DNA of 64,000 bases from a virus (lineage: Duplodnaviria > Heunggongvirae > Uroviricota > Caudoviricetes): positions 1-64,000 of IMG/VR virus record IMGVR_UViG_3300025875_000002; one strand, given 5' to 3'. Made by a program: the position numbers and the translations under genes. Below, one piece after another: positions 6,433 to 40,161 of the stretch (position 1 is the first letter of the stretch; every line of letters begins with the position of its first letter). The notes below the pieces were generated by a model that was not told the DNA's origin, ran no database searches, and saw nothing but the letters and a program-made list of their open reading frames with translations.

Positions 6433-6933
6433 ATGACTTGTAACGATGCTAAATGTGATAGCCCTGCCGAAAGGCGGGGCTATTGCCTTAAGCACTACAT
6501 GCATTTTTACAGGTACGGTGCAAATTACGCTGATGTGCCTGCTTGCCGTGACTGTGGCAACCCTACAGGAAGTGATAAAAGGGTAAAGCGGTACTGTGAT
6601 GATTGTGCTATAATTAGAATTAGACAGGATCGGATCAGGGCAAACAACCGTCGCCGGTCACGGTCAGGCAAGGGTGATCACTACACGATCCAGATTCTTC
6701 TTGACTTGGACGGTCAGACGTGCTATCTTTGTGGCACAACGTTGACGGAGAGCCCGTCGATAGATCATGTAATTGCTCTGTCTCTCGGTGGGACAGATAC
6801 AGTAGACAATGTAGCACTTACCCATTGGGAGTGCAATAATCGAAAGAAGGCTAAGAATTTAGATGATACACGCTTAGAGTTTCCACACATGGCAATTCCT
6901 AGCAGAATTAGGGGTGAATTAAGATGCGAATGA
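6433..6933 (+). CDS. HNH endonuclease
   Basis: N-terminal zinc-ribbon cysteines; DHVIALSLGGTDTVDNVALTHWECNNRK HNH core. Confidence 0.75.
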   Translation: MTCNDAKCDSPAERRGYCLKHYMHFYRYGANYADVPACRDCGNPTGSDKRVKRYCDDCAIIRIRQDRIRANNRRRSRSGKGDHYTIQILLDLDGQTCYLCGTTLTESPSIDHVIALSLGGTDTVDNVALTHWECNNRKKAKNLDDTRLEFPHMAIPSRIRGELRCE

Positions 6934-7448
6934 CAATGGATATGACGAAGGCTGAGATTTTTGCCTTCCTAGCGGAACGAGACGGTTACAGGTGCACCTT
7001 CCCAGGTTGCGTCCGTCCTCTTGGTGACCCTAACGACATTGACACACTTGACCACATTTACCCTCAGTTTCTTGCTAAGCAGGCGGGTTGGACTAGGGCT
7101 GAAATTGATGCCTTGGACAACCTACAGATTCAGCACAAGCGGTGTAACGCTATCAAGGGTCACCAGCTTCCGGACGAAAACGGTAACTTCATTGTTCCCG
7201 TTCGTGAGCCTAAGCCCGTGCGTGGTCCGCGTCCTGAGATTTGTGACACGTGTTACAACGGTCGAATCTTGTTCATCGGTGAAGTTTGTCCAGACTGTGA
7301 GTCTGGACCGCAGCCTGCTGCTGCGCCCTCTGCATACAAGAAGACTCCTAAGGAGTGCAGCCACAGCGGTTTCGATCACTGCTGGATGTGCTACCTTGGT
7401 TTTGTTGAGCGTGGCTCTGCCTTGCAGAATTTGATTACTGGCACCTAG
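6924..7448 (+). CDS. HNH endonuclease
   Basis: LDHIYPQF...LQIQHKRCNAIKG HNH core; C-terminal CxxC pairs. Confidence 0.65.
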   Translation: MRMTMDMTKAEIFAFLAERDGYRCTFPGCVRPLGDPNDIDTLDHIYPQFLAKQAGWTRAEIDALDNLQIQHKRCNAIKGHQLPDENGNFIVPVREPKPVRGPRPEICDTCYNGRILFIGEVCPDCESGPQPAAAPSAYKKTPKECSHSGFDHCWMCYLGFVERGSALQNLITGT

Positions 7449-8704: not shown

Positions 8705-8778
8705 TGCAGGCGTAGCTTAGTGGCCTAAAGCTCCCCTCTCTAAAAGGGGGATCGTGAGTTCGACTCTCACCGCCCGCA
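8705..8778 (+). tRNA. tRNA with anticodon CUA (amber-reading suppressor-type); amino acid identity undetermined
   Basis: Clean cloverleaf: acceptor GCAGGCG, D GCTT/AAGC, anticodon stem CCCCT/AGGGG, loop CTCTAAA (U33, A37), T arm GTGAG-TTCGACT-CTCAC, short variable arm. Confidence 0.5.
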
Positions 8779-8779
8779 C

Positions 8780-9432: not shown

Positions 9433-9503
9433 GCGAGTATGATGTAGTGGTAACATAAGACGCTTCCAACGTTTTCTCGCCGGTTCGAACCCGGCTACTC
9501 GCT
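9433..9503 (+). tRNA. tRNA-Gly(UCC)
   Basis: Acceptor GCGAGTA/TACTCGC, D ATGT/ACAT, anticodon stem AGACG/CGTTT, loop CTTCCAA, T arm GCCGG-TTCGAAC-CCGGC. Confidence 0.65.
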
Positions 9504-9542
9504 CTCCACGTCTACCGGGTTACAGACGTTAAACGCCCATAT

Positions 9543-9616
9543 GGTCCGTTGGTCTAGCGGTAAGGATACCAGACTTTCAATCTGAGTGAACGTGGGTTCG
9601 AATCCCACACGGACTG
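9543..9616 (+). tRNA. tRNA-Glu(UUC)
   Basis: Acceptor GGTCCGT/ACGGACT, anticodon loop CTTTCAA, T arm GTGGG-TTCGAAT-CCCAC. Confidence 0.6.
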
Positions 9617-9670
9617 CGCGTACGTGCAAGACATTACTCCTTGTCGTCCTCCGGGACTGGCAAGGCTTTT

Positions 9671-9741
9671 ATCCGCTAAGTGTTACGGAAGCACAGAAAG
9701 CTCCAACCTTTCTAGCGTGGGTTCGACTCCTACAGCGGGTG
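9671..9741 (+). tRNA. tRNA-Trp(CCA)
   Basis: Acceptor ATCCGCT/AGCGGGT, anticodon stem GAAAG/CTTTC loop CTCCAAC, T loop TTCGACT. Confidence 0.55.
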
Positions 9742-9874: not shown

Positions 9875-10291
9875 ATGAAAACATGTTCGATGTGTAAGTT
9901 AGAAAAGCCCTTCGATGCATTCGCTAAGGCAACAGGAACAAAAGATTTGTTGCAGCGTGGATGCAAAGATTGTAAGGCAGCGCAGTACAAGGCCAATAGT
10001 GGTAAGTATAAGGCGGGATCGAAAGAGGCAAGGGCGCGCAGGGCTGCTAAGCTAGCAGAACTAAAGTCTGCGCCTTGCACTGACTGCGGTGTTCAATATC
10101 CTTCGTATGTGATGCAATATGATCATATTGGTTTGGACAAGACAGCCCATGTATCATACTTAATGTCAAGAGTTTCTTGGTCTGTAATCTTGGAAGAGAT
10201 TGCAAAGTGTGAGCTTGTGTGTGCGAATTGTCATGCTGAAAGATCACATCAAAGAGCAAAAGATTTAATCGGGAACGAGGAAGATGGTTAA
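9875..10291 (+). CDS. HNH endonuclease (family with 19706..20008 and frameshifted 28775..29282)
   Basis: CTDCGVQYPSYVMQYDHIG...AKCELVCANCH motif; N-terminal Cys pairs. Confidence 0.7.
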   Translation: MKTCSMCKLEKPFDAFAKATGTKDLLQRGCKDCKAAQYKANSGKYKAGSKEARARRAAKLAELKSAPCTDCGVQYPSYVMQYDHIGLDKTAHVSYLMSRVSWSVILEEIAKCELVCANCHAERSHQRAKDLIGNEEDG

Positions 10292-10433: not shown

Positions 10434-10613
10434 GAGGCATGTAGTTTAATGGCAGAACAGCCCGGGTCTACTTTGCGGAATCGCGCGGTTTCGTAAGATC
10501 CCTCTAAATGCACATGAGGCTAAATAAGGTGCAGCCTGGGGCAGTATACCCTCACCCTGATAAGGTGTTGAAAGGTTAGCTGGTACCACGTTGGTTCAAA
10601 TCCAACCTGCCTC
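10434..10613 (+). tRNA. tRNA-like gene with ~110-nt internal insertion (interrupted tRNA or pseudo-tRNA)
   Basis: Canonical 5 prime half GAGGCAT-GTAGTTTAATGGCAGAACA and canonical 3 prime GTTGG-TTCAAAT-CCAAC-CTGCCTC-A whose acceptor strands pair; second alternative 5 prime acceptor GGGGCAG at 10528 also pairs with same 3 prime strand. Confidence 0.35.
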
Positions 10614-10665
10614 ACGCAAATCCCTAGGGACTAATCGTAACAAACTCGACTAGTTAGGACGTGCA

Positions 10666-11109: not shown

Positions 11110-11205
11110 GCACGGTTGAAGAACGGTTCGAATCCGTCTCGTAGTGTAATGGTAGCACGCAGCCTTAAGGTAAGTGCAGGTTCGAATCCTGTCCGGTCCA
11201 CTTTG
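11110..11205 (+). other. degenerate tRNA-like element(s)
   Basis: Two T-arm motifs (ACGG-TTCGAAT-CCGT; GCAGG-TTCGAAT-CCTGT) and a D-arm-like GTAGTGTAATGGTAGCAC but no complete cloverleaf; loop CTTAAGG would give anticodon UAA if real. Confidence 0.25.
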
Positions 11206-11708: not shown

Positions 11709-11797
11709 TGGAAGTACAAGCCGAATGCTGGCCGACGGCATCGCACTTGAAATGCGACGAGGATAAAACCCTTGTGGGTTCGAACCCCACTGCTTCC
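11709..11797 (+). tRNA. tRNA-Ser(UGA), class II long variable arm
   Basis: Acceptor GGAAGTA/TGCTTCC, anticodon stem TCGCA/TGCGA loop CTTGAAA, long variable arm, T arm GTGGG-TTCGAAC-CCCAC. Confidence 0.6.
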
Positions 11798-13225: not shown

Positions 13226-13441
13226 ATGGCAAGGATTGACGAGAAGGCAGCAGAGCTTTCCGAGCAGCTTCGTGCAGAGCTTGGTGCTATTGAGTTGAGT
13301 GCAATGGAGTTCACCCTTGCAGATGCAATTCGTGAGGGTTCCGGTGTTACTACTCATGAGCAGAGCGGTTGGGGTGACGGCGCTAGCGCTTGTGCACTCA
13401 CTGCGGCCCTTGTATCTGCTAAGAGCAGAGGCTACGTCTGA
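13226..13441 (+). CDS. hypothetical protein
   Basis: ORF track; RBS GGAGGAAGAAAATG. Confidence 0.35.
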   Translation: MARIDEKAAELSEQLRAELGAIELSAMEFTLADAIREGSGVTTHEQSGWGDGASACALTAALVSAKSRGYV

Positions 13442-13473
13442 TCCAGTGTAGTTCCTGCAAGGAGCTAAAGCCC

Positions 13474-15423: not shown

Positions 15424-15504
15424 GGGTCTAACGCCAAACGGTCAGGCATTGGATTGTGACTCCATGAGTATATCCCACAGAGGGTTCGACTCCCTCTAGA
15501 CCCT
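15424..15504 (+). tRNA. tRNA-like, 81 nt, possible anticodon GUG (His?) with extended variable region
   Basis: Perfect acceptor GGGTCTA/TAGACCC, T arm GAGGG-TTCGACT-CCCTC; internal arms noncanonical. Confidence 0.35.
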
Positions 15505-22358: not shown

Positions 22359-22382
22359 TTACCTTAATAACTAGGTGGTGGA

Positions 22383-22400
22383 GGACGAGATTTCTCGTCC
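22383..22400 (+). terminator. hairpin terminator candidate
   Basis: GGACGAGAtttCTCGTCC. Confidence 0.35.
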
Positions 22401-22707
22401 CTAGACTGGCCCGGTCTTAACAATGGGCACTTAAACTAAGGAGACAACATGATAATGTTCGTATGGTGGGTGATGGAAAAGCTCGACCAGGCTTATCATG
22501 CTGGGTTTATTCCAGAGCCTCTTGGCAAGAAGATTTGCAACGCTCTTGACAACTACTACACATCGGAGTAATATATGATGATAGTGTGGAACGATGGTGA
22601 TGAATGCATCATCGTTATGGACAAGGGCAAGAAGGGTGAAATTTTTGGAGTCCTTGATTTAGACATCATAGATGTTATTGAACTTTACAACAAGCTTAAC
22701 AAGATTC

Positions 22708-22736
22708 TTGACAAGCGCGGGTTGATAGAGTAGAAT
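22708..22736 (+). promoter_or_regulatory. sigma70-like promoter (TTGACA N17 TAGAAT) driving ORF-free RNA locus
   Basis: cTTGACAagcgcgggttgatagagTAGAATgt. Confidence 0.4.
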
Positions 22737-22744
22737 GTAAGACA

Positions 22745-23260
22745 GAGCAGAAATGCTCTCATGAGTGTGCGCCGAAGCGGGAGAGTCGGGGGTGGCTGTA
22801 ACCCATTTGCAATTGCTGAGTGGGTTCGAATCCTATCACACTTACGTAAGGTTCCGATATTCGAATAGGAGCCTAGGCAGAGATAAGCCCTTGTGTAAGC
22901 GGGGTCGGCACCCGTCACCGGCAGTCGTCGGTGGTTTCTGGCAACAGCACAAGCAAACTGTTAGTGAAGTTAGGCCGATGAAACTGCTAACCCATTTTAG
23001 CCCGCTAGTCCAACGGTGATATTGGACGACCAGTGTCTGATGCCCCAACGGTTCGGGGCGGCGGTTGTAACCCGTTGTATTCATCAACTCAGTTCGATTC
23101 TGAGCAGGCGCACTACCCCCGGTCCCAAGGGGAATGACTAAGTATCGGGCACGTATTCTCGTGGGCTAACTGTTGGTAGTTAGAATGGTCCGTTAAACCA
23201 TTACTCCGTAGGTTCGATCCCAGCTGTGAGAGCATTACTTAGAGTGACATTTCTATCCTT
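22745..23260 (+). ncRNA. ORF-free, promoter-driven structured RNA locus with tRNA-like modules (function unknown)
   Basis: ~500 nt without credible ORF; T-arm-like motifs GGGTTCGAATCC, CAGTTCGATTCTGAG, AGGTTCGATCC; repeated TGTAACCC; multiple hairpins; 82-nt tRNA-like element 22762..22843 with pairing termini GAGTGTG/CACACTT. Confidence 0.35.
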
Positions 23261-23269
23261 AGAGTGAGC

Positions 23270-23298
23270 TTGACACCTAATAGATTCAGTCTATAATC
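23270..23298 (+). promoter_or_regulatory. sigma70-like promoter (TTGACA N17 TATAAT)
   Basis: cTTGACAcctaatagattcagtcTATAATcaagg. Confidence 0.45.
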
Positions 23299-27159: not shown

Positions 27160-27900
27160 AGTAAATGAGGTATGGCTCAATAAGCTATGGTGACATAGTG
27201 AAAGGCAGACTGGTTGTCTGTCGCCCAGCAATGGGTAGTCCATACAAAGCATTGGTCGTTGAGCAATCGGACACCCCGGTTGCAGCGATGTGAGCGTCCC
27301 AGGCGAATGGTCGAATGACTGTAGCCACCCGGCAGGGTAAGACGGGGTTCTACGTAAGCATCACGTTCGATAATGCGAGGAAAGATAGTCCGAGACCGCA
27401 ATCAAGGGCGCTTTCCATGAAGGTTAAGTAGCTGGACCGGCAGGTTCGTGAAAGACTAGAGATTTGAGTAGCCCCGCAAGGCGAAAGATATTGAGGCGTG
27501 TAGTATTCTTAGGCTCAAAAGGTCTCGGAACTACGCGGAGAAGCACGTCTCTCACCACATACCCACCCCGGTTAGGGGACTGTATATTGGAATACAAATT
27601 CAAATAAGCAAAAGACTTCTCCTGTCGTAAAGCAAAAGTGCCTTAATGGCTGACCTTCGGGAATCAGCCCACCTAAAAGCTCGCAAGGCCAAGGGTGTTC
27701 GTGTACAAGTAGTGCAGTGAAGGGGTTTAGCGGCCCTTACACGAATCGAAAGTAGCGGAGTAGCTCTACGTCATGAAGAGTGATCAGCTATACTGATCAG
27801 GCACGGCAGGTCCGGTAGGGATACCGGGGAAAGGTTGGGAAACAATAATCCAACTAAAGCCTGTCACGGGAGGGTGAATTCTAAGCCCTCCCAAATTTTA
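27160..27900 (+). ncRNA. large ORF-free, highly structured RNA candidate (~740 nt); identity unresolved (GOLLD/ROOL-like phage RNA or degenerate ribozyme-like element)
   Basis: No credible ORF on either strand; many hairpins incl. GNRA/UUCG-type loops; long-range complementarity AGTCCGAGACC (27387-97) with GGTCTCGGAACT (27521-32); flanked by tRNAs. Confidence 0.4.
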
Positions 27901-27975: not shown

Positions 27976-28083
27976 CTAGCGCGGATGGAGAAAAGGTGTC
28001 TCGCCAGCCTCATAAGCTGGAAATCAGGCTGGTCGGAGCAGCCCCGCGCTCCCACGTATTGGAACAACAGAAAGGCAATCCTA

Positions 28084-29282: not shown

Positions 29283-29591
29283 ATAACCTGAGGAGGTGAC
29301 TAAATTCGTATGGCATCATCACCATCCGGCTTGAAGGGCAACCCAGCCTCCAAGCGTATGAGCAACGCCCACCGCAAGGCATACCGCGCGGCACTATGGG
29401 CAAAGCAGAAGAAGCGTGCAGCAGCGCGTCAGGCAAAGCAGGACGCAGCACACGCCGCAAAGCAGAGGTGAGTATGGCGGGGTTGACAAGTTCAACCCCG
29501 CCTGCTACACTTAACATGGCAGATTGGCCGAGGGAAGGTACGCGCCTGCAAAGCGTTGTCACACGGGTTCGTAACCCGTATCTGCCTCCAC

Positions 29592-29657
29592 GCTCTCAGT
29601 AAGGAACAGAACGATCTTCCGAAGTTCGTGATCAGGGTTCGATTCCCTGTGAGAGCA
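29592..29657 (+). other. 66-nt tRNA-like element lacking a D arm
   Basis: Perfect acceptor GCTCTCA/TGAGAGC, T arm CAGGG-TTCGATT-CCCTG, single central hairpin. Confidence 0.3.
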
Positions 29658-29765
29658 CGGGGCCGGTTGTGCGGCCAACTAATATGACTCTGATTCTATT
29701 GGGATTGGGTTGGAGTCGAATAGGTGAGATATAGTAGCCCAATTGAGGCTCACCTACACAACCTA

Positions 29766-32905: not shown

Positions 32906-32978
32906 TCCCCTGTAGCTCAGTTGGTAGAGCGTCGCTCTGTTAAAGCGAATGTCACTGGATCGAAGCCAGTCGGGGGAG
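32906..32978 (+). tRNA. tRNA-Asn(GUU)
   Basis: Acceptor TCCCCTG/CGGGGGA, D GCTC/GAGC, anticodon stem TCGCT/AGCGA loop CTGTTAA, T arm ACTGG-ATCGAAG-CCAGT. Confidence 0.65.
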
Positions 32979-32996
32979 CCTAAAGAAAGGAAAGTA

Positions 32997-33422: not shown

Positions 33423-33658
33423 TCGTAGTTCAGTGGGGGTTCGACTCCTCATGCGGCCGCAATTCTCCGGGAAGGCTGAACTAGCAATGGGCGTTAAGTG
33501 TCAAGGGTTGCACGTCGGTGTTGCATACCGAAAGATAGGGTTCAACTCCCTCACTGTCCACACCTAGAGGAAACCAGGGACGCTTGGTGAAATCGAAAGT
33601 CAGCCGGATGGAGGCTGAGAGCATAAGGAGACCTAATGGTTGGTCCCACCATCGCAAT

Positions 33659-39199: not shown

Positions 39200-39271
39200 G
39201 CGTGCGTAGGCCATCGGCGAGCCGCCAGATTTAGGTTCTGGTGTATGTGGGTTCGACTCCCATCGCACGTA
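39200..39271 (+). tRNA. tRNA with anticodon UAG but class I (short variable arm) architecture
   Basis: Acceptor GCGTGCG/CGCACGT, D GGCC/AGCC, anticodon stem CCAGA/TCTGG loop TTTAGGT, variable TGTAT, T arm GTGGG-TTCGACT-CCCAT. Confidence 0.5.
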
Positions 39272-39310
39272 CGCTTGACTTTGGTAGGCTAGCTTGCTAT
39301 AATCATAGCA

Positions 39311-39924: not shown

Positions 39925-39997
39925 GCCTACATAGTCCAACGGTAGAGACAAACGGCTTAGACCCGTTGTGTTGGGGGTTCGAATCCCTCTGTAGGCA
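39925..39997 (+). tRNA. second class-I-architecture tRNA with anticodon UAG
   Basis: Perfect acceptor GCCTACA/TGTAGGC, D GTCC/AGAC-type, anticodon stem AACGG/CCGTT loop CTTAGAC, variable GTGTT, T arm GGGGG-TTCGAAT-CCCTC. Confidence 0.5.
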
Positions 39998-40161
39998 CCG
40001 AGCGGTAGTGTAAGTGCGTATAAAGCGTTCGATTTCAGGCACCCTGGGGACGGCAATCCTAACAGAGTTTGCGGGTCGTTCGAAAAACGTAGCCTCTTTG
40101 CCGAGGGGAAGCACACTGGACGTTAATCCAGTAGTGAGGTATCAAATCCTCCCAATCGACT

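Follow-up and report, generated by a model that had tools for sequence, protein, structure and literature searches.

What does a promoter-driven stretch of about 500 nt, in which no protein gene is apparent, encode within the transfer RNA (tRNA) island of a phage? This question is raised by positions 22708-23260 of the DNA analysed here, the first 64,000 nt of the IMG/VR virus record IMGVR_UViG_3300025875_000002 (hereafter the window), for which an earlier reading made from the letters alone (the sequence-only reading) had proposed a dedicated noncoding transcription unit built of tRNA-like modules. The locus as it was then described is largely explained by three tRNA genes, and its real content is a structured RNA that lies between two tRNA-Tyr genes (tRNA-Tyr1 and tRNA-Tyr2). 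The sequence-only reading had noted "several hairpins" in the region but had not singled out this part of it (22846-23032), which is the only one that is not tRNA. Comparison with related phage loci indicates that 22846-23032 is not spacer, and that it belongs to a family of structured non-coding RNAs that had not been described before. In the window the element takes a long form of 187 nt, and the core common to all copies extends from 22846 to about 23000; this element and all the features of the locus described below are on the + strand.

The family was delineated from loci retrieved through the neighbouring DEDDh exonuclease gene. When 80 loci around homologues of this gene were searched by blastn with the locus split into parts, only the spacer between the two tRNA-Tyr genes was matched (L002:13263-13418, 65% identity), and the tRNAs were unmatched. 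The layout of L002 is tRNA-Asn, a 189-nt element (13257-13445), tRNA-Tyr and tRNA-Asn, and between these first two copies 13 of 36 pairs were compensatory. A protein search with the exonuclease, combined with context look-ups, led to three further distinct copies, at L106:6917-7071, L109:9763-9918 and L117:9763-9917, in loci whose exonucleases are 95%, 75% and 69% identical to that of the window, respectively; a covariance model (CM) built from the window and L002 copies (R1) detected all three with scores of 56-72 bits (E values of 1e-18 to 1e-24). The L106 copy recurs unchanged in L107 and L108, and the L117 copy recurs unchanged in L118 and partially in L119. With a second model built from all five distinct copies (R2), these scored 120-154 bits against at most 18 bits for anything else in about 1.6 Mb, and the runners-up were tRNAs, which matched via their T arms. 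Overall, the copies are 61-75% identical. Between the window and L106, identity amounts to 95% for the exonuclease, 88% for tRNA-Tyr2, 71% for the element and 57% for tRNA-Tyr1; the region is mosaic.

Alignment of the five copies supports a fold with at least four covarying helices (P1, P2, P3 and P6), a further hairpin (P4) that is kept in position only, and three near-invariant loops. Across P1, P2, P3 and P6, 103 of 105 cells hold canonical pairs and 14 of 21 positions show double compensatory changes. Counted on the model-based alignment, 99% of the cells are paired and 13 of 20 pairs are changed on both sides, and none of 500 shuffles reached the observed value on any measure; the covariation score was 0.74 compared to 0.31 in shuffles, and slid registers left 22-50% of the cells paired. 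In a MAFFT alignment, P1-P3 were 100% paired with compensatory changes at 9 of 14 pairs, and RNAalifold predicted P1-P3 independently. The helix cells include eight G.U and no A.C combinations, which fixes the + strand as the one read. Protein coding was rejected for the element, as no frame is open in all five copies and the indels are not multiples of three.

The individual parts of the element differ in how strictly they are kept. P1 (22849-22874) is a 7-bp helix with all cells paired and compensatory changes at five of its seven pairs, and closes the near-invariant 12-nt loop GAUAUUCGAAUA, identical in four of the five copies; this loop holds the 8-nt palindrome AUUCGAAU, which is also complementary to a UUCGAAU T loop, together with the T-loop-like pentamer UUCGA. 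P2 (22876-22889) consists of three pairs (GGC/GCC, replaced by UCC/GGA in L002), two of them compensatory, and the 8-nt loop AGAGAUAA, invariant in all five copies. A linker of 8-10 nt leads to P3 (22899-22915), a T-arm-like hairpin of 5 bp with a 7-nt loop; its stem covaries, and its loop reads GUCGGCA in the window and UUCGAAU, UUCGAUC or UUCGAUG in the short forms. P3 of L109 is a textbook T arm (CCGGG-UUCGAAU-CCCGG), and the sub-threshold Rfam matches of that copy are to the T-arm regions of YrlA, mascRNA and transfer-messenger RNA (tmRNA). P4 (22916-22933; CACCGGC-AGUC-GUCGGUG in the window) directly follows P3 in every copy, and is itself followed by a short hairpin with a GCAA or GGAA-type loop. 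P6 (22960-22991) joins a helix of 5-7 bp (GUUAG/CUAAC in the window), 100% paired and with five of six pairs compensatory, to a loop of about 21 nt of the form (U)GAAG..GGCC..GAAACUG, in which GAAACUG is invariant and the 4-nt palindrome is GGCC in four copies and GCGC, still a palindrome, in L002. The two long forms (window and L002) also carry a 3' extension of 32-36 nt (23000-23032 in the window; GCCCGCU, 2 nt, a hairpin and GACCA), which resembles the 5' third of a tRNA in layout, lacks covariation and has no counterpart in L106, L109 and L117.

Additional interactions were considered for this fold and rejected. The CCCGC of the 3' extension can pair with the GCGGG of P3, and RNAalifold prefers this alternative long-range helix for the two long forms; as three copies are without them, the GCGGG/CCCGC helix and the 3' hairpin were not accepted as part of the core, and the apparent fit of the hairpin of the first model in the short copies was discounted because the CM had placed it on the D-arm of the next tRNA. 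The window, L109 and L002 could plausibly form a pseudoknot in which a GGC lying 5' of P6 pairs with GCC of the P6 loop, but L106 and L117 could not. Kissing between the loops of P1 and P3 reaches 7 bp in L109 only and is not conserved. Mimicry of an anticodon by the GUA of the P2-P3 linker is likewise not conserved (CUAG in L109, CAAAG in L117), and the core misfits a hammerhead-like reading of CUGAUGA...GAAA.

The position of the element relative to its flanking tRNAs is constant. Each of the five loci runs from the discriminator of the upstream tRNA through a single C and the element to position +1 of a tRNA-Tyr(GUA), such that the element directly abuts the downstream tRNA, and in all five it begins with GU(A/G). 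The upstream tRNA is tRNA-Tyr in four loci and tRNA-Asn in L002, and the downstream tRNA-Tyr is of an atypical form in four loci and of the canonical class II form in L002.

Searches for the element elsewhere delimited the family further. At E <= 10, Rfam provided no family for the window, L109 and L002 copies, nor did a run over the whole window at gathering thresholds; the general tRNA model (RF00005) gave no match at E <= 10 in these three copies, and ARAGORN found no tRNA in 22846-23032 in default, lowered-threshold or intron modes. CM searches of about 1.7 Mb of related phage tRNA regions returned no members beyond the five, and the motifs of the element were absent from all 66 other gaps of 100-260 nt between tRNAs of the same arrays. 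Two candidates for diverged copies upstream of tRNA-Tyr were discarded, since the gap in L110 contains a tRNA missed by ARAGORN and that in L001 is without the motif. In IMG/VR, an exact 33-mer and three degenerate patterns matched only the L002 contig and one AT-rich coding false positive (L082). In the JGI metagenomes, one of 23 pattern matches was real (L101, the same contig as L002), the rest being one conserved coding gene and chance matches, and in the GTDB genomes two patterns gave no match and then three chance matches (<=19 bits, no tRNAs nearby). Among deposited phages (INPHARED, 50,697 records), blastn run for both near and distant matches picked up tRNA-Tyr1 alone of the locus (about 80% identity), and with the window and L002 copies (word size 11, E <= 10) it yielded only chance matches in unrelated coding regions.

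The modules that had drawn attention to the locus proved to be its ordinary part. The three T-arm-like motifs noted in the sequence-only reading are present (GGGTTCGAATCC at 22822, CAGTTCGATTCTGAG at 23090 and AGGTTCGATCC at 23210) and are the T arms of tRNA-Tyr1, tRNA-Tyr2 and tRNA-Asn; the repeated TGTAACCC (22797 and 23066) is the anticodon loop of both Tyr tRNAs; and the acceptor-like pairing of GAGTGTG (22763) with CACACTT (22837) exists and belongs to an 82-nt element that is tRNA-Tyr1 itself. The suggestion of fused or degenerate tRNAs, or of a decoy, was not supported for these modules, as ARAGORN recognised three separate cloverleaves and relatives carry compensatory changes in the stems. 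Resolution of the region into tRNAs by a tRNA finder had been named beforehand as an outcome that would overturn this suggestion, and because ARAGORN resolves the modules as tRNAs for Tyr, Tyr and Asn, the suggestion fails for them on its own terms. The broader expectation of a tRNA-like RNA that is not a tRNA was borne out in part: the 187-nt element does have a T-arm-like hairpin, but none of the listed motifs lies in it. By ARAGORN, each of the three modules is a cloverleaf in which a 7-bp acceptor stem is joined by D, T and anticodon arms, the last with a loop of 7 nt. Of the universal core nucleotides, the T-loops and GG are present, and position 8 is C in tRNA-Tyr1 (cmscan register), A in tRNA-Tyr2 and G in tRNA-Asn. 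Many other tRNAs of the same phage are irregular in a similar manner. Related phages carry the same three tRNA genes, and compensatory stem changes are seen in the orthologues of L106, L109 and L117. The three modules are genuine, though quirky, tRNA genes; since they are kept in relatives and their stems covary, the tRNA part of the locus is ordinary.

Each of the three tRNAs has its own peculiarities. tRNA-Tyr1(GUA) (22763-22844) is class II-like with a 13-nt variable region, an acceptor stem GAGUGUG/CACACUU (G1.U72) and discriminator A; ARAGORN placed it at 22761-22845, 2 nt out of register with the cmscan coordinates. It matched the Rfam tRNA model with 31.0 bits (E = 2e-4, gathering threshold 29) in a search of 801 nt only, and is 88% identical to the corresponding tRNA of L109 (26.6 bits, RF00005) and about 80% identical to the annotated tRNA-Tyr of Microbacterium phage Cece and Arthrobacter phage Racecar. 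tRNA-Tyr2(GUA) (23033-23113) is atypical according to ARAGORN, with A8, a D-stem of 5-6 bp with a loop of roughly 4 nt, and an unstructured 10-nt variable region. Its D arm resembles that of tRNA-Sec, and the odd architecture is kept in four phages. In the window it has no Rfam tRNA match, while its L109 orthologue (9919-9998) fits the tRNA-Sec model with 38.5 bits, better than the general tRNA model. Identity to the orthologues in L106 and L109 is 69-88%, the acceptor, anticodon and T stems covary, and the acceptor stems across loci read GUGUCUG/CAGGCGC, GCGUUUG/CAGACGC, GCUGGUA/UGCCAGC and GCUGGUA/UACCAGU. tRNA-Asn(GUU) (23157-23233) was identified by ARAGORN with three G.U pairs in the acceptor stem, an A.A mismatch in the T stem and C33, and Rfam gave it only 18.7 bits, to tRNA-Sec; its L106 counterpart (7166-7242), at 87% identity, has a T stem free of mismatches and differs at acceptor pair 4 by a compensatory change. 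A second, canonical tRNA-Asn of 63 bits is located at 32906-32980. The whole-window Rfam run at gathering thresholds listed none of the three tRNAs of the locus. Between tRNA-Tyr2 and tRNA-Asn, a 43-nt spacer (23114-23156) with the hairpin CCCC-GGUCCCAA-GGGG is found in the window only, L106 having 13 nt there. The tRNA-Asn of both the window and L106 carries C33 instead of the near-universal U33, which could relate to the evasion of anticodon nucleases (cf. PMC10264068).

During infection, the likely role of the operon's tRNAs is to supply tRNA-Tyr and tRNA-Asn or to take the place of those of the host. A tRNA-Tyr expressed from a strong promoter is known to act against a defence in which tRNA-Tyr is degraded (PMC11555353). 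The tRNAs described here fit this use of strongly expressed phage tRNA-Tyr, and also the idea that phage tRNAs may be nuclease-resistant (PMC10264068).

Regarding the limits of the transcription unit, the sigma-70-type promoter TTGACA-N17-TAGAAT named in the sequence-only reading was recovered as described (22708-22736; TTGACA at 22708, TAGAAT at 22731; 11 of 12 consensus matches). Its -10 element ends 26 nt before tRNA-Tyr1, it overlaps the last codons of a 52-aa open reading frame (ORF; 22575-22733), and L106 has an identical promoter at the same position (6794-6822). In a scan, promoter-like sites numbered 13 in 4 kb, compared to 5.7 ± 2.7 in shuffles. L002 has only a candidate promoter about 100 nt upstream; a TTGTAT-N18-TATAAT promoter read there by hand was dropped, as the promoter scan did not confirm it. 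The promoter of the next gene is also present (23270-23297; TTGACA at 23270-23275, TATAAT at 23292-23297; 12 of 12 matches), with a spacer of 16 nt and not the 17 nt first proposed; it marks the downstream limit of the non-coding unit and is kept in L106 at 7274-7301. No intrinsic terminator was predicted between tRNA-Asn and the promoter at 23270. The region of about 500 nt is free of ORFs in the sense that none is conserved; ORFs of 77-84 aa do exist, but run through the tRNA genes. Collectively, these data support a promoter-driven non-coding transcription unit on the + strand.

The Tyr-element-Tyr cluster is accompanied by a second conserved motif, also non-coding and about 65 nt long (window 22373-22436; L106 about 6620-6690; L109 about 9620-9680; L117 about 9490-9550). 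The motif is composed of an invariant GUGGUGGAGG, a covarying hairpin (GGACG/CGUCC, GGGCA/UGCCC, GGGUG/CACCC and GGGAG/CUCCC), an invariant CCUAGACNGGCCCGGUCUU hairpin and AAUGGGCA. An 18-mer of this motif is found once per genome in four of the genomes that bear the element and is absent from 114 other loci, and the motif always lies 32-362 nt upstream of tRNA-Tyr1, whichever side of the exonuclease gene the cluster sits on. A sub-threshold match to the Rfam wcaG family (22.6 bits, threshold 42) falls near it.

The window as a whole is part of a large phage-like genome with 47% G+C and a very large tRNA island, comprising 37 tRNAs and a tmRNA by ARAGORN, as well as a GOLLD RNA by Rfam. No close relative was found among the deposited phage records, a megablast of 20 kb against them returning single tRNAs only. 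Its 717-aa rIIA-like protein has its best match (38%) in Streptomyces phages of about 133 kb, e.g. Peebs and Teutsch, and the window encodes an Rpf-type transglycosylase fused to an M23 peptidase; both features point to an actinobacterial host.

How, then, might the element be made, and what might it do? We favour, with a probability of roughly 0.62, the reading that the locus is a small phage tRNA operon, made up of promoter, tRNA-Tyr, an element of a new RNA family (22846-23032), tRNA-Tyr and tRNA-Asn, from which the element would be released to act in trans. By analogy with known tRNA processing, the element is most likely a stable RNA cut from the tRNA precursor by ribonuclease (RNase) Z and RNase P. 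If bacterial tRNA maturation is taken as the guide, the operon would be transcribed as one precursor, in which RNase P, in maturing the 5' end of the downstream tRNA-Tyr, would create the 3' end of the element, and RNase Z, or another endonuclease followed by trimming, would act on the CCA-less upstream tRNA to create its 5' end. Cuts by these two enzymes at the flanking tRNAs would thus release the element as a discrete RNA of about 156-188 nt, which would be equimolar with the tRNAs and would not need a terminator of its own. That the released RNA would then act in trans via its invariant loops is the hypothesis on which this scheme is weakest. Most likely it would mimic or bind a factor that handles tRNAs, or would associate with another RNA, either a second copy of itself or a tRNA, because the element combines T-loop-type sequences, self-complementary loops (AUUCGAAU; GGCC or GCGC) and a constant partnership with tRNA-Tyr.

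A number of observations weigh against a released, trans-acting RNA. The family consists of only five distinct sequences from one phage lineage, whose relatedness inflates the covariation statistics, and all of them come from uncultivated metagenomic contigs and are known as sequence alone. CM searches did not find the element in the equally close relatives L001, L110-L116, L120 and L124-L126, and its absence from many close relatives implies that it is dispensable. Folded singly, the window copy shows no significant gain in stability over shuffles (z = -1.39); with so few copies, P4, P5, a possible pseudoknot and the long-range helix are provisional parts of the fold, and in the window and L002 copies the loop of P3 deviates from the T-loop consensus. 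As for a partner protein encoded nearby, no Ro60, RtcB or CCA-adding enzyme was found among the 30 largest ORFs of the window. The dedicated promoter is present only in the window and L106, and L117 has no equivalent within about 380 nt, so that a dedicated unit is no constant feature of the family; the constant is the tRNA flanks.

Because the element always stands directly 5' of a tRNA-Tyr(GUA) with zero spacer, it might instead be a cis-acting leader that guides the folding or processing of the odd tRNA-Tyr2, or the order or rate of RNase P cleavage, and is then discarded. Such a role would also suit the atypical form of the downstream tRNA, with its Sec-like D-arm, in three lineages, and would need no trans partner, none having been identified. 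We nevertheless consider it unlikely, since L002 keeps the element before a different, canonical class II tRNA-Tyr that is only 52% identical, the invariant loops show, on inspection of the sequences, no complementarity to the downstream tRNA that is conserved, and a 155-nt multi-helix fold with three invariant loops exceeds the needs of known tRNA leaders. A T-box leader (RF00230) or other riboswitch was rejected, with no Rfam match at E <= 10, no 3' hairpin followed by a U tract, and a tRNA in place of the downstream gene. At the other extreme, the element could be non-functional spacer or debris of tRNA pseudogenes, its similarity among phages reflecting recent common ancestry; many gaps of 100-260 nt do exist in phage tRNA arrays, the 3' extension of the long forms resembles the 5' third of a tRNA, and the T-loop-like sequences of P1 and P3 could be relics. 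Copies that are only 61-75% identical yet keep 99% of their cells paired, with 13 of 20 pairs compensatory, make this extremely improbable, as do loops that stay invariant while the stems vary, the better preservation of the element than of tRNA-Tyr1 between the window and L106 (71% vs 57%), and the fact that in L002 the element is the only part that blastn detected.

Two further proposals assign the element a more specific activity. In the first, P3 and P4 would form a permuted tRNA-like domain, a mimic or decoy of the YrlA type for Ro60/Rsr, a modification enzyme or a host nuclease that attacks tRNA-Tyr. P3 is indeed a T-arm look-alike of 5 bp and 7 nt (UUCGAAU in L109), and the YrlA model matches P3 and P4 of L109 with 13.6 bits; YrlA RNAs processed by RNase P occur in mycobacteriophages (PMC4201824), and tRNA-Tyr is a known target of defence (PMC11555353). 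The proposal is distinctly unlikely in view of how weak that match is (E = 5.8, gathering threshold 69), how the window and L002 copies remain unmatched, and how the P3 loop in these two is not T-loop-like. Moreover, a regular-expression search found no GNCGAAN0-1G near the 5' end of any copy (it occurs only at 118-119 in L109 and L117), the two ends of the element are not complementary, no conserved D-arm-like partner or anticodon-loop mimic was seen, with the GUA of the linker not conserved, and Pfam scans of the flanking genes and of the 30 largest ORFs of the 64-kb window revealed no TROVE domain. In the second, the RNA would be self-acting, either as a new self-cleaving or processing ribozyme that frees the adjoining tRNAs without the help of host enzymes or as a homodimer or oligomer held by its palindromic loops (cf. 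GOLLD, ROOL and OLE). This would accord with the self-complementary AUUCGAAU of all five copies and the GGCC of four (GCGC in L002), with the GOLLD RNA in the tRNA island of the same genome, with the kissing loops used by RNA-only assemblies (PMC12286853) and with element boundaries that coincide exactly with tRNA ends. We regard it as very unlikely: none of the Rfam ribozyme families (hammerhead, twister, pistol, hatchet, HDV-like) matched the three copies searched at E <= 10, a loop of 21 nt would be expected to contain a 4-nt palindrome by chance, intermolecular pairs are not supported by covariation, and RNase P and RNase Z suffice to account for the boundaries.

The release of the element by flanking tRNA cuts, as we propose it, has precedents. 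RNAs punctuated by tRNAs are known from mitochondrial tRNA punctuation, from MALAT1/mascRNA and from plant tRNA-snoRNA precursors, in which RNase P and RNase Z cut at the flanks. The same route is suggested here by zero-spacer junctions read from the sequence of a phage, whereas the known cases are eukaryotic or organellar. In setting, the closest analogues are RNAC and RNAD of phage T4 (species 1 and 2 RNAs), small stable non-tRNA RNAs that are co-transcribed with the phage tRNA cluster; their ends are made by the tRNA-processing machinery, and they have been unexplained since the 1970s. The element shows no sequence homology to them (blastn, 50,697 records) and differs in size, host phylum and fold, so that the likeness is one of setting and not of descent, and, unlike RNAC and RNAD, it has a strict place between a tRNA and a tRNA-Tyr. 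The two T4 RNAs derive from the tRNA gene region of that phage; their role was described as unknown both in 2010 (PMC3014915) and in 2022 (PMC9697503).

GOLLD and ROOL (RF02032 and RF03087) are, like the element, structured phage or prophage RNAs of tRNA islands; they are 400-800 nt or longer with dozens of helices, while the element has 155-190 nt and no CM match to them, and oligomerisation has been shown for them and is conjecture for the element. These RNAs have spectacular structures, and their function is unexplained. They are often located near tRNA islands (PMC12286853). The GOLLD RNA of the window lies at 27491-27888 (203.5 bits, full-length on the 416-position Rfam model), 4.5 kb downstream of the element and 90 nt upstream of a tRNA-Met (27978-28054) in the same tRNA island, and may be the locus that the earlier reader had counted as the first ORF-free RNA locus. 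YrlA Y RNAs (RF02553) occur in mycobacteriophages and are acted on by enzymes of tRNA metabolism, RNase P among them (PMC4201824). Like the element, they are non-coding RNAs of about 100-150 nt in actinobacteriophages, with a T-arm look-alike followed by a variable hairpin; the features that define them, namely the Ro60-binding GNCGAA motif, a terminal stem, a D-arm mimic and a neighbouring Ro60 gene, were not found for the element or the window. As it shares no sequence similarity with T4 RNAC/RNAD, is unrelated by model to GOLLD/ROOL and lacks every defining feature of YrlA, the element is a new family within a known kind, the structured RNAs of phage tRNA islands.

Several other RNA genes of the window and its relatives deserve mention. 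The phage tmRNA (29767-30073) encodes the tag peptide ADYDVVAEAEAILAEASLISA, which is identical in L106 and related in L109 and L117. A tRNA with anticodon CUA (8706-8779, 58.5 bits), labelled "Pyl" by ARAGORN, is likely of the amber-suppressor type, and similar CUA tRNAs occur in L003 and L110/L111. In bacteria, a long variable arm normally defines tRNA-Leu; two tRNA-Leu(UAG) of 73-75 nt (39200-39272 and 39925-39999) lack such an arm, yet score 51-60 bits. Conversely, an 85-nt "tRNA-Asn(GUU)" of L002 (13543-13627) has a long variable arm (class II, unusual for Asn) and reaches only 24 bits, to tRNA-Sec. Rfam reported tRNAs missed by ARAGORN at 10538-10614, 11135-11200, 11711-11797, 15424-15504 and 33489-33560, whereas the tRNA-Arg(CCG) that ARAGORN placed at 29590-29658 is probably a false call, since one of its bases is shared with a tRNA-Cys, 12 of its stem positions are unpaired and Rfam does not support it.

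For the annotation of phage genomes, these results imply that gaps in tRNA arrays should not be presumed to be spacer and that phage tRNAs with low scores can be genuine. Phage tRNA islands repeatedly carry non-tRNA RNAs whose purpose has gone unexplained for decades, and the element would be easier than the giant RNAs to study by probing, crystallography or cryo-electron microscopy, pull-downs and genetics, because it is compact (about 155 nt) and has defined ends, strong covariation, three invariant loops and a strict link to tRNA-Tyr. As a speculation that we hold to be rather doubtful, it could be the first representative of a class of small phage RNAs, new to science, that are "punctuated" from tRNA operons, which would use T-loop-type modules and self-complementary loops to dock onto tRNA-Tyr, an enzyme that handles it or a defence nuclease, as a tRNA-specific decoy or chaperone, or to form an RNA-only dimer, and which would be a miniature, tractable relative of T4 RNAC/RNAD, GOLLD and ROOL in function and not in sequence. 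To our knowledge, the conflict between phage and host over tRNAs is so far known only through replacement tRNAs and protein inhibitors. If the element does act on tRNA-Tyr metabolism or on tRNA-targeting defences, it would add an RNA component to this conflict.

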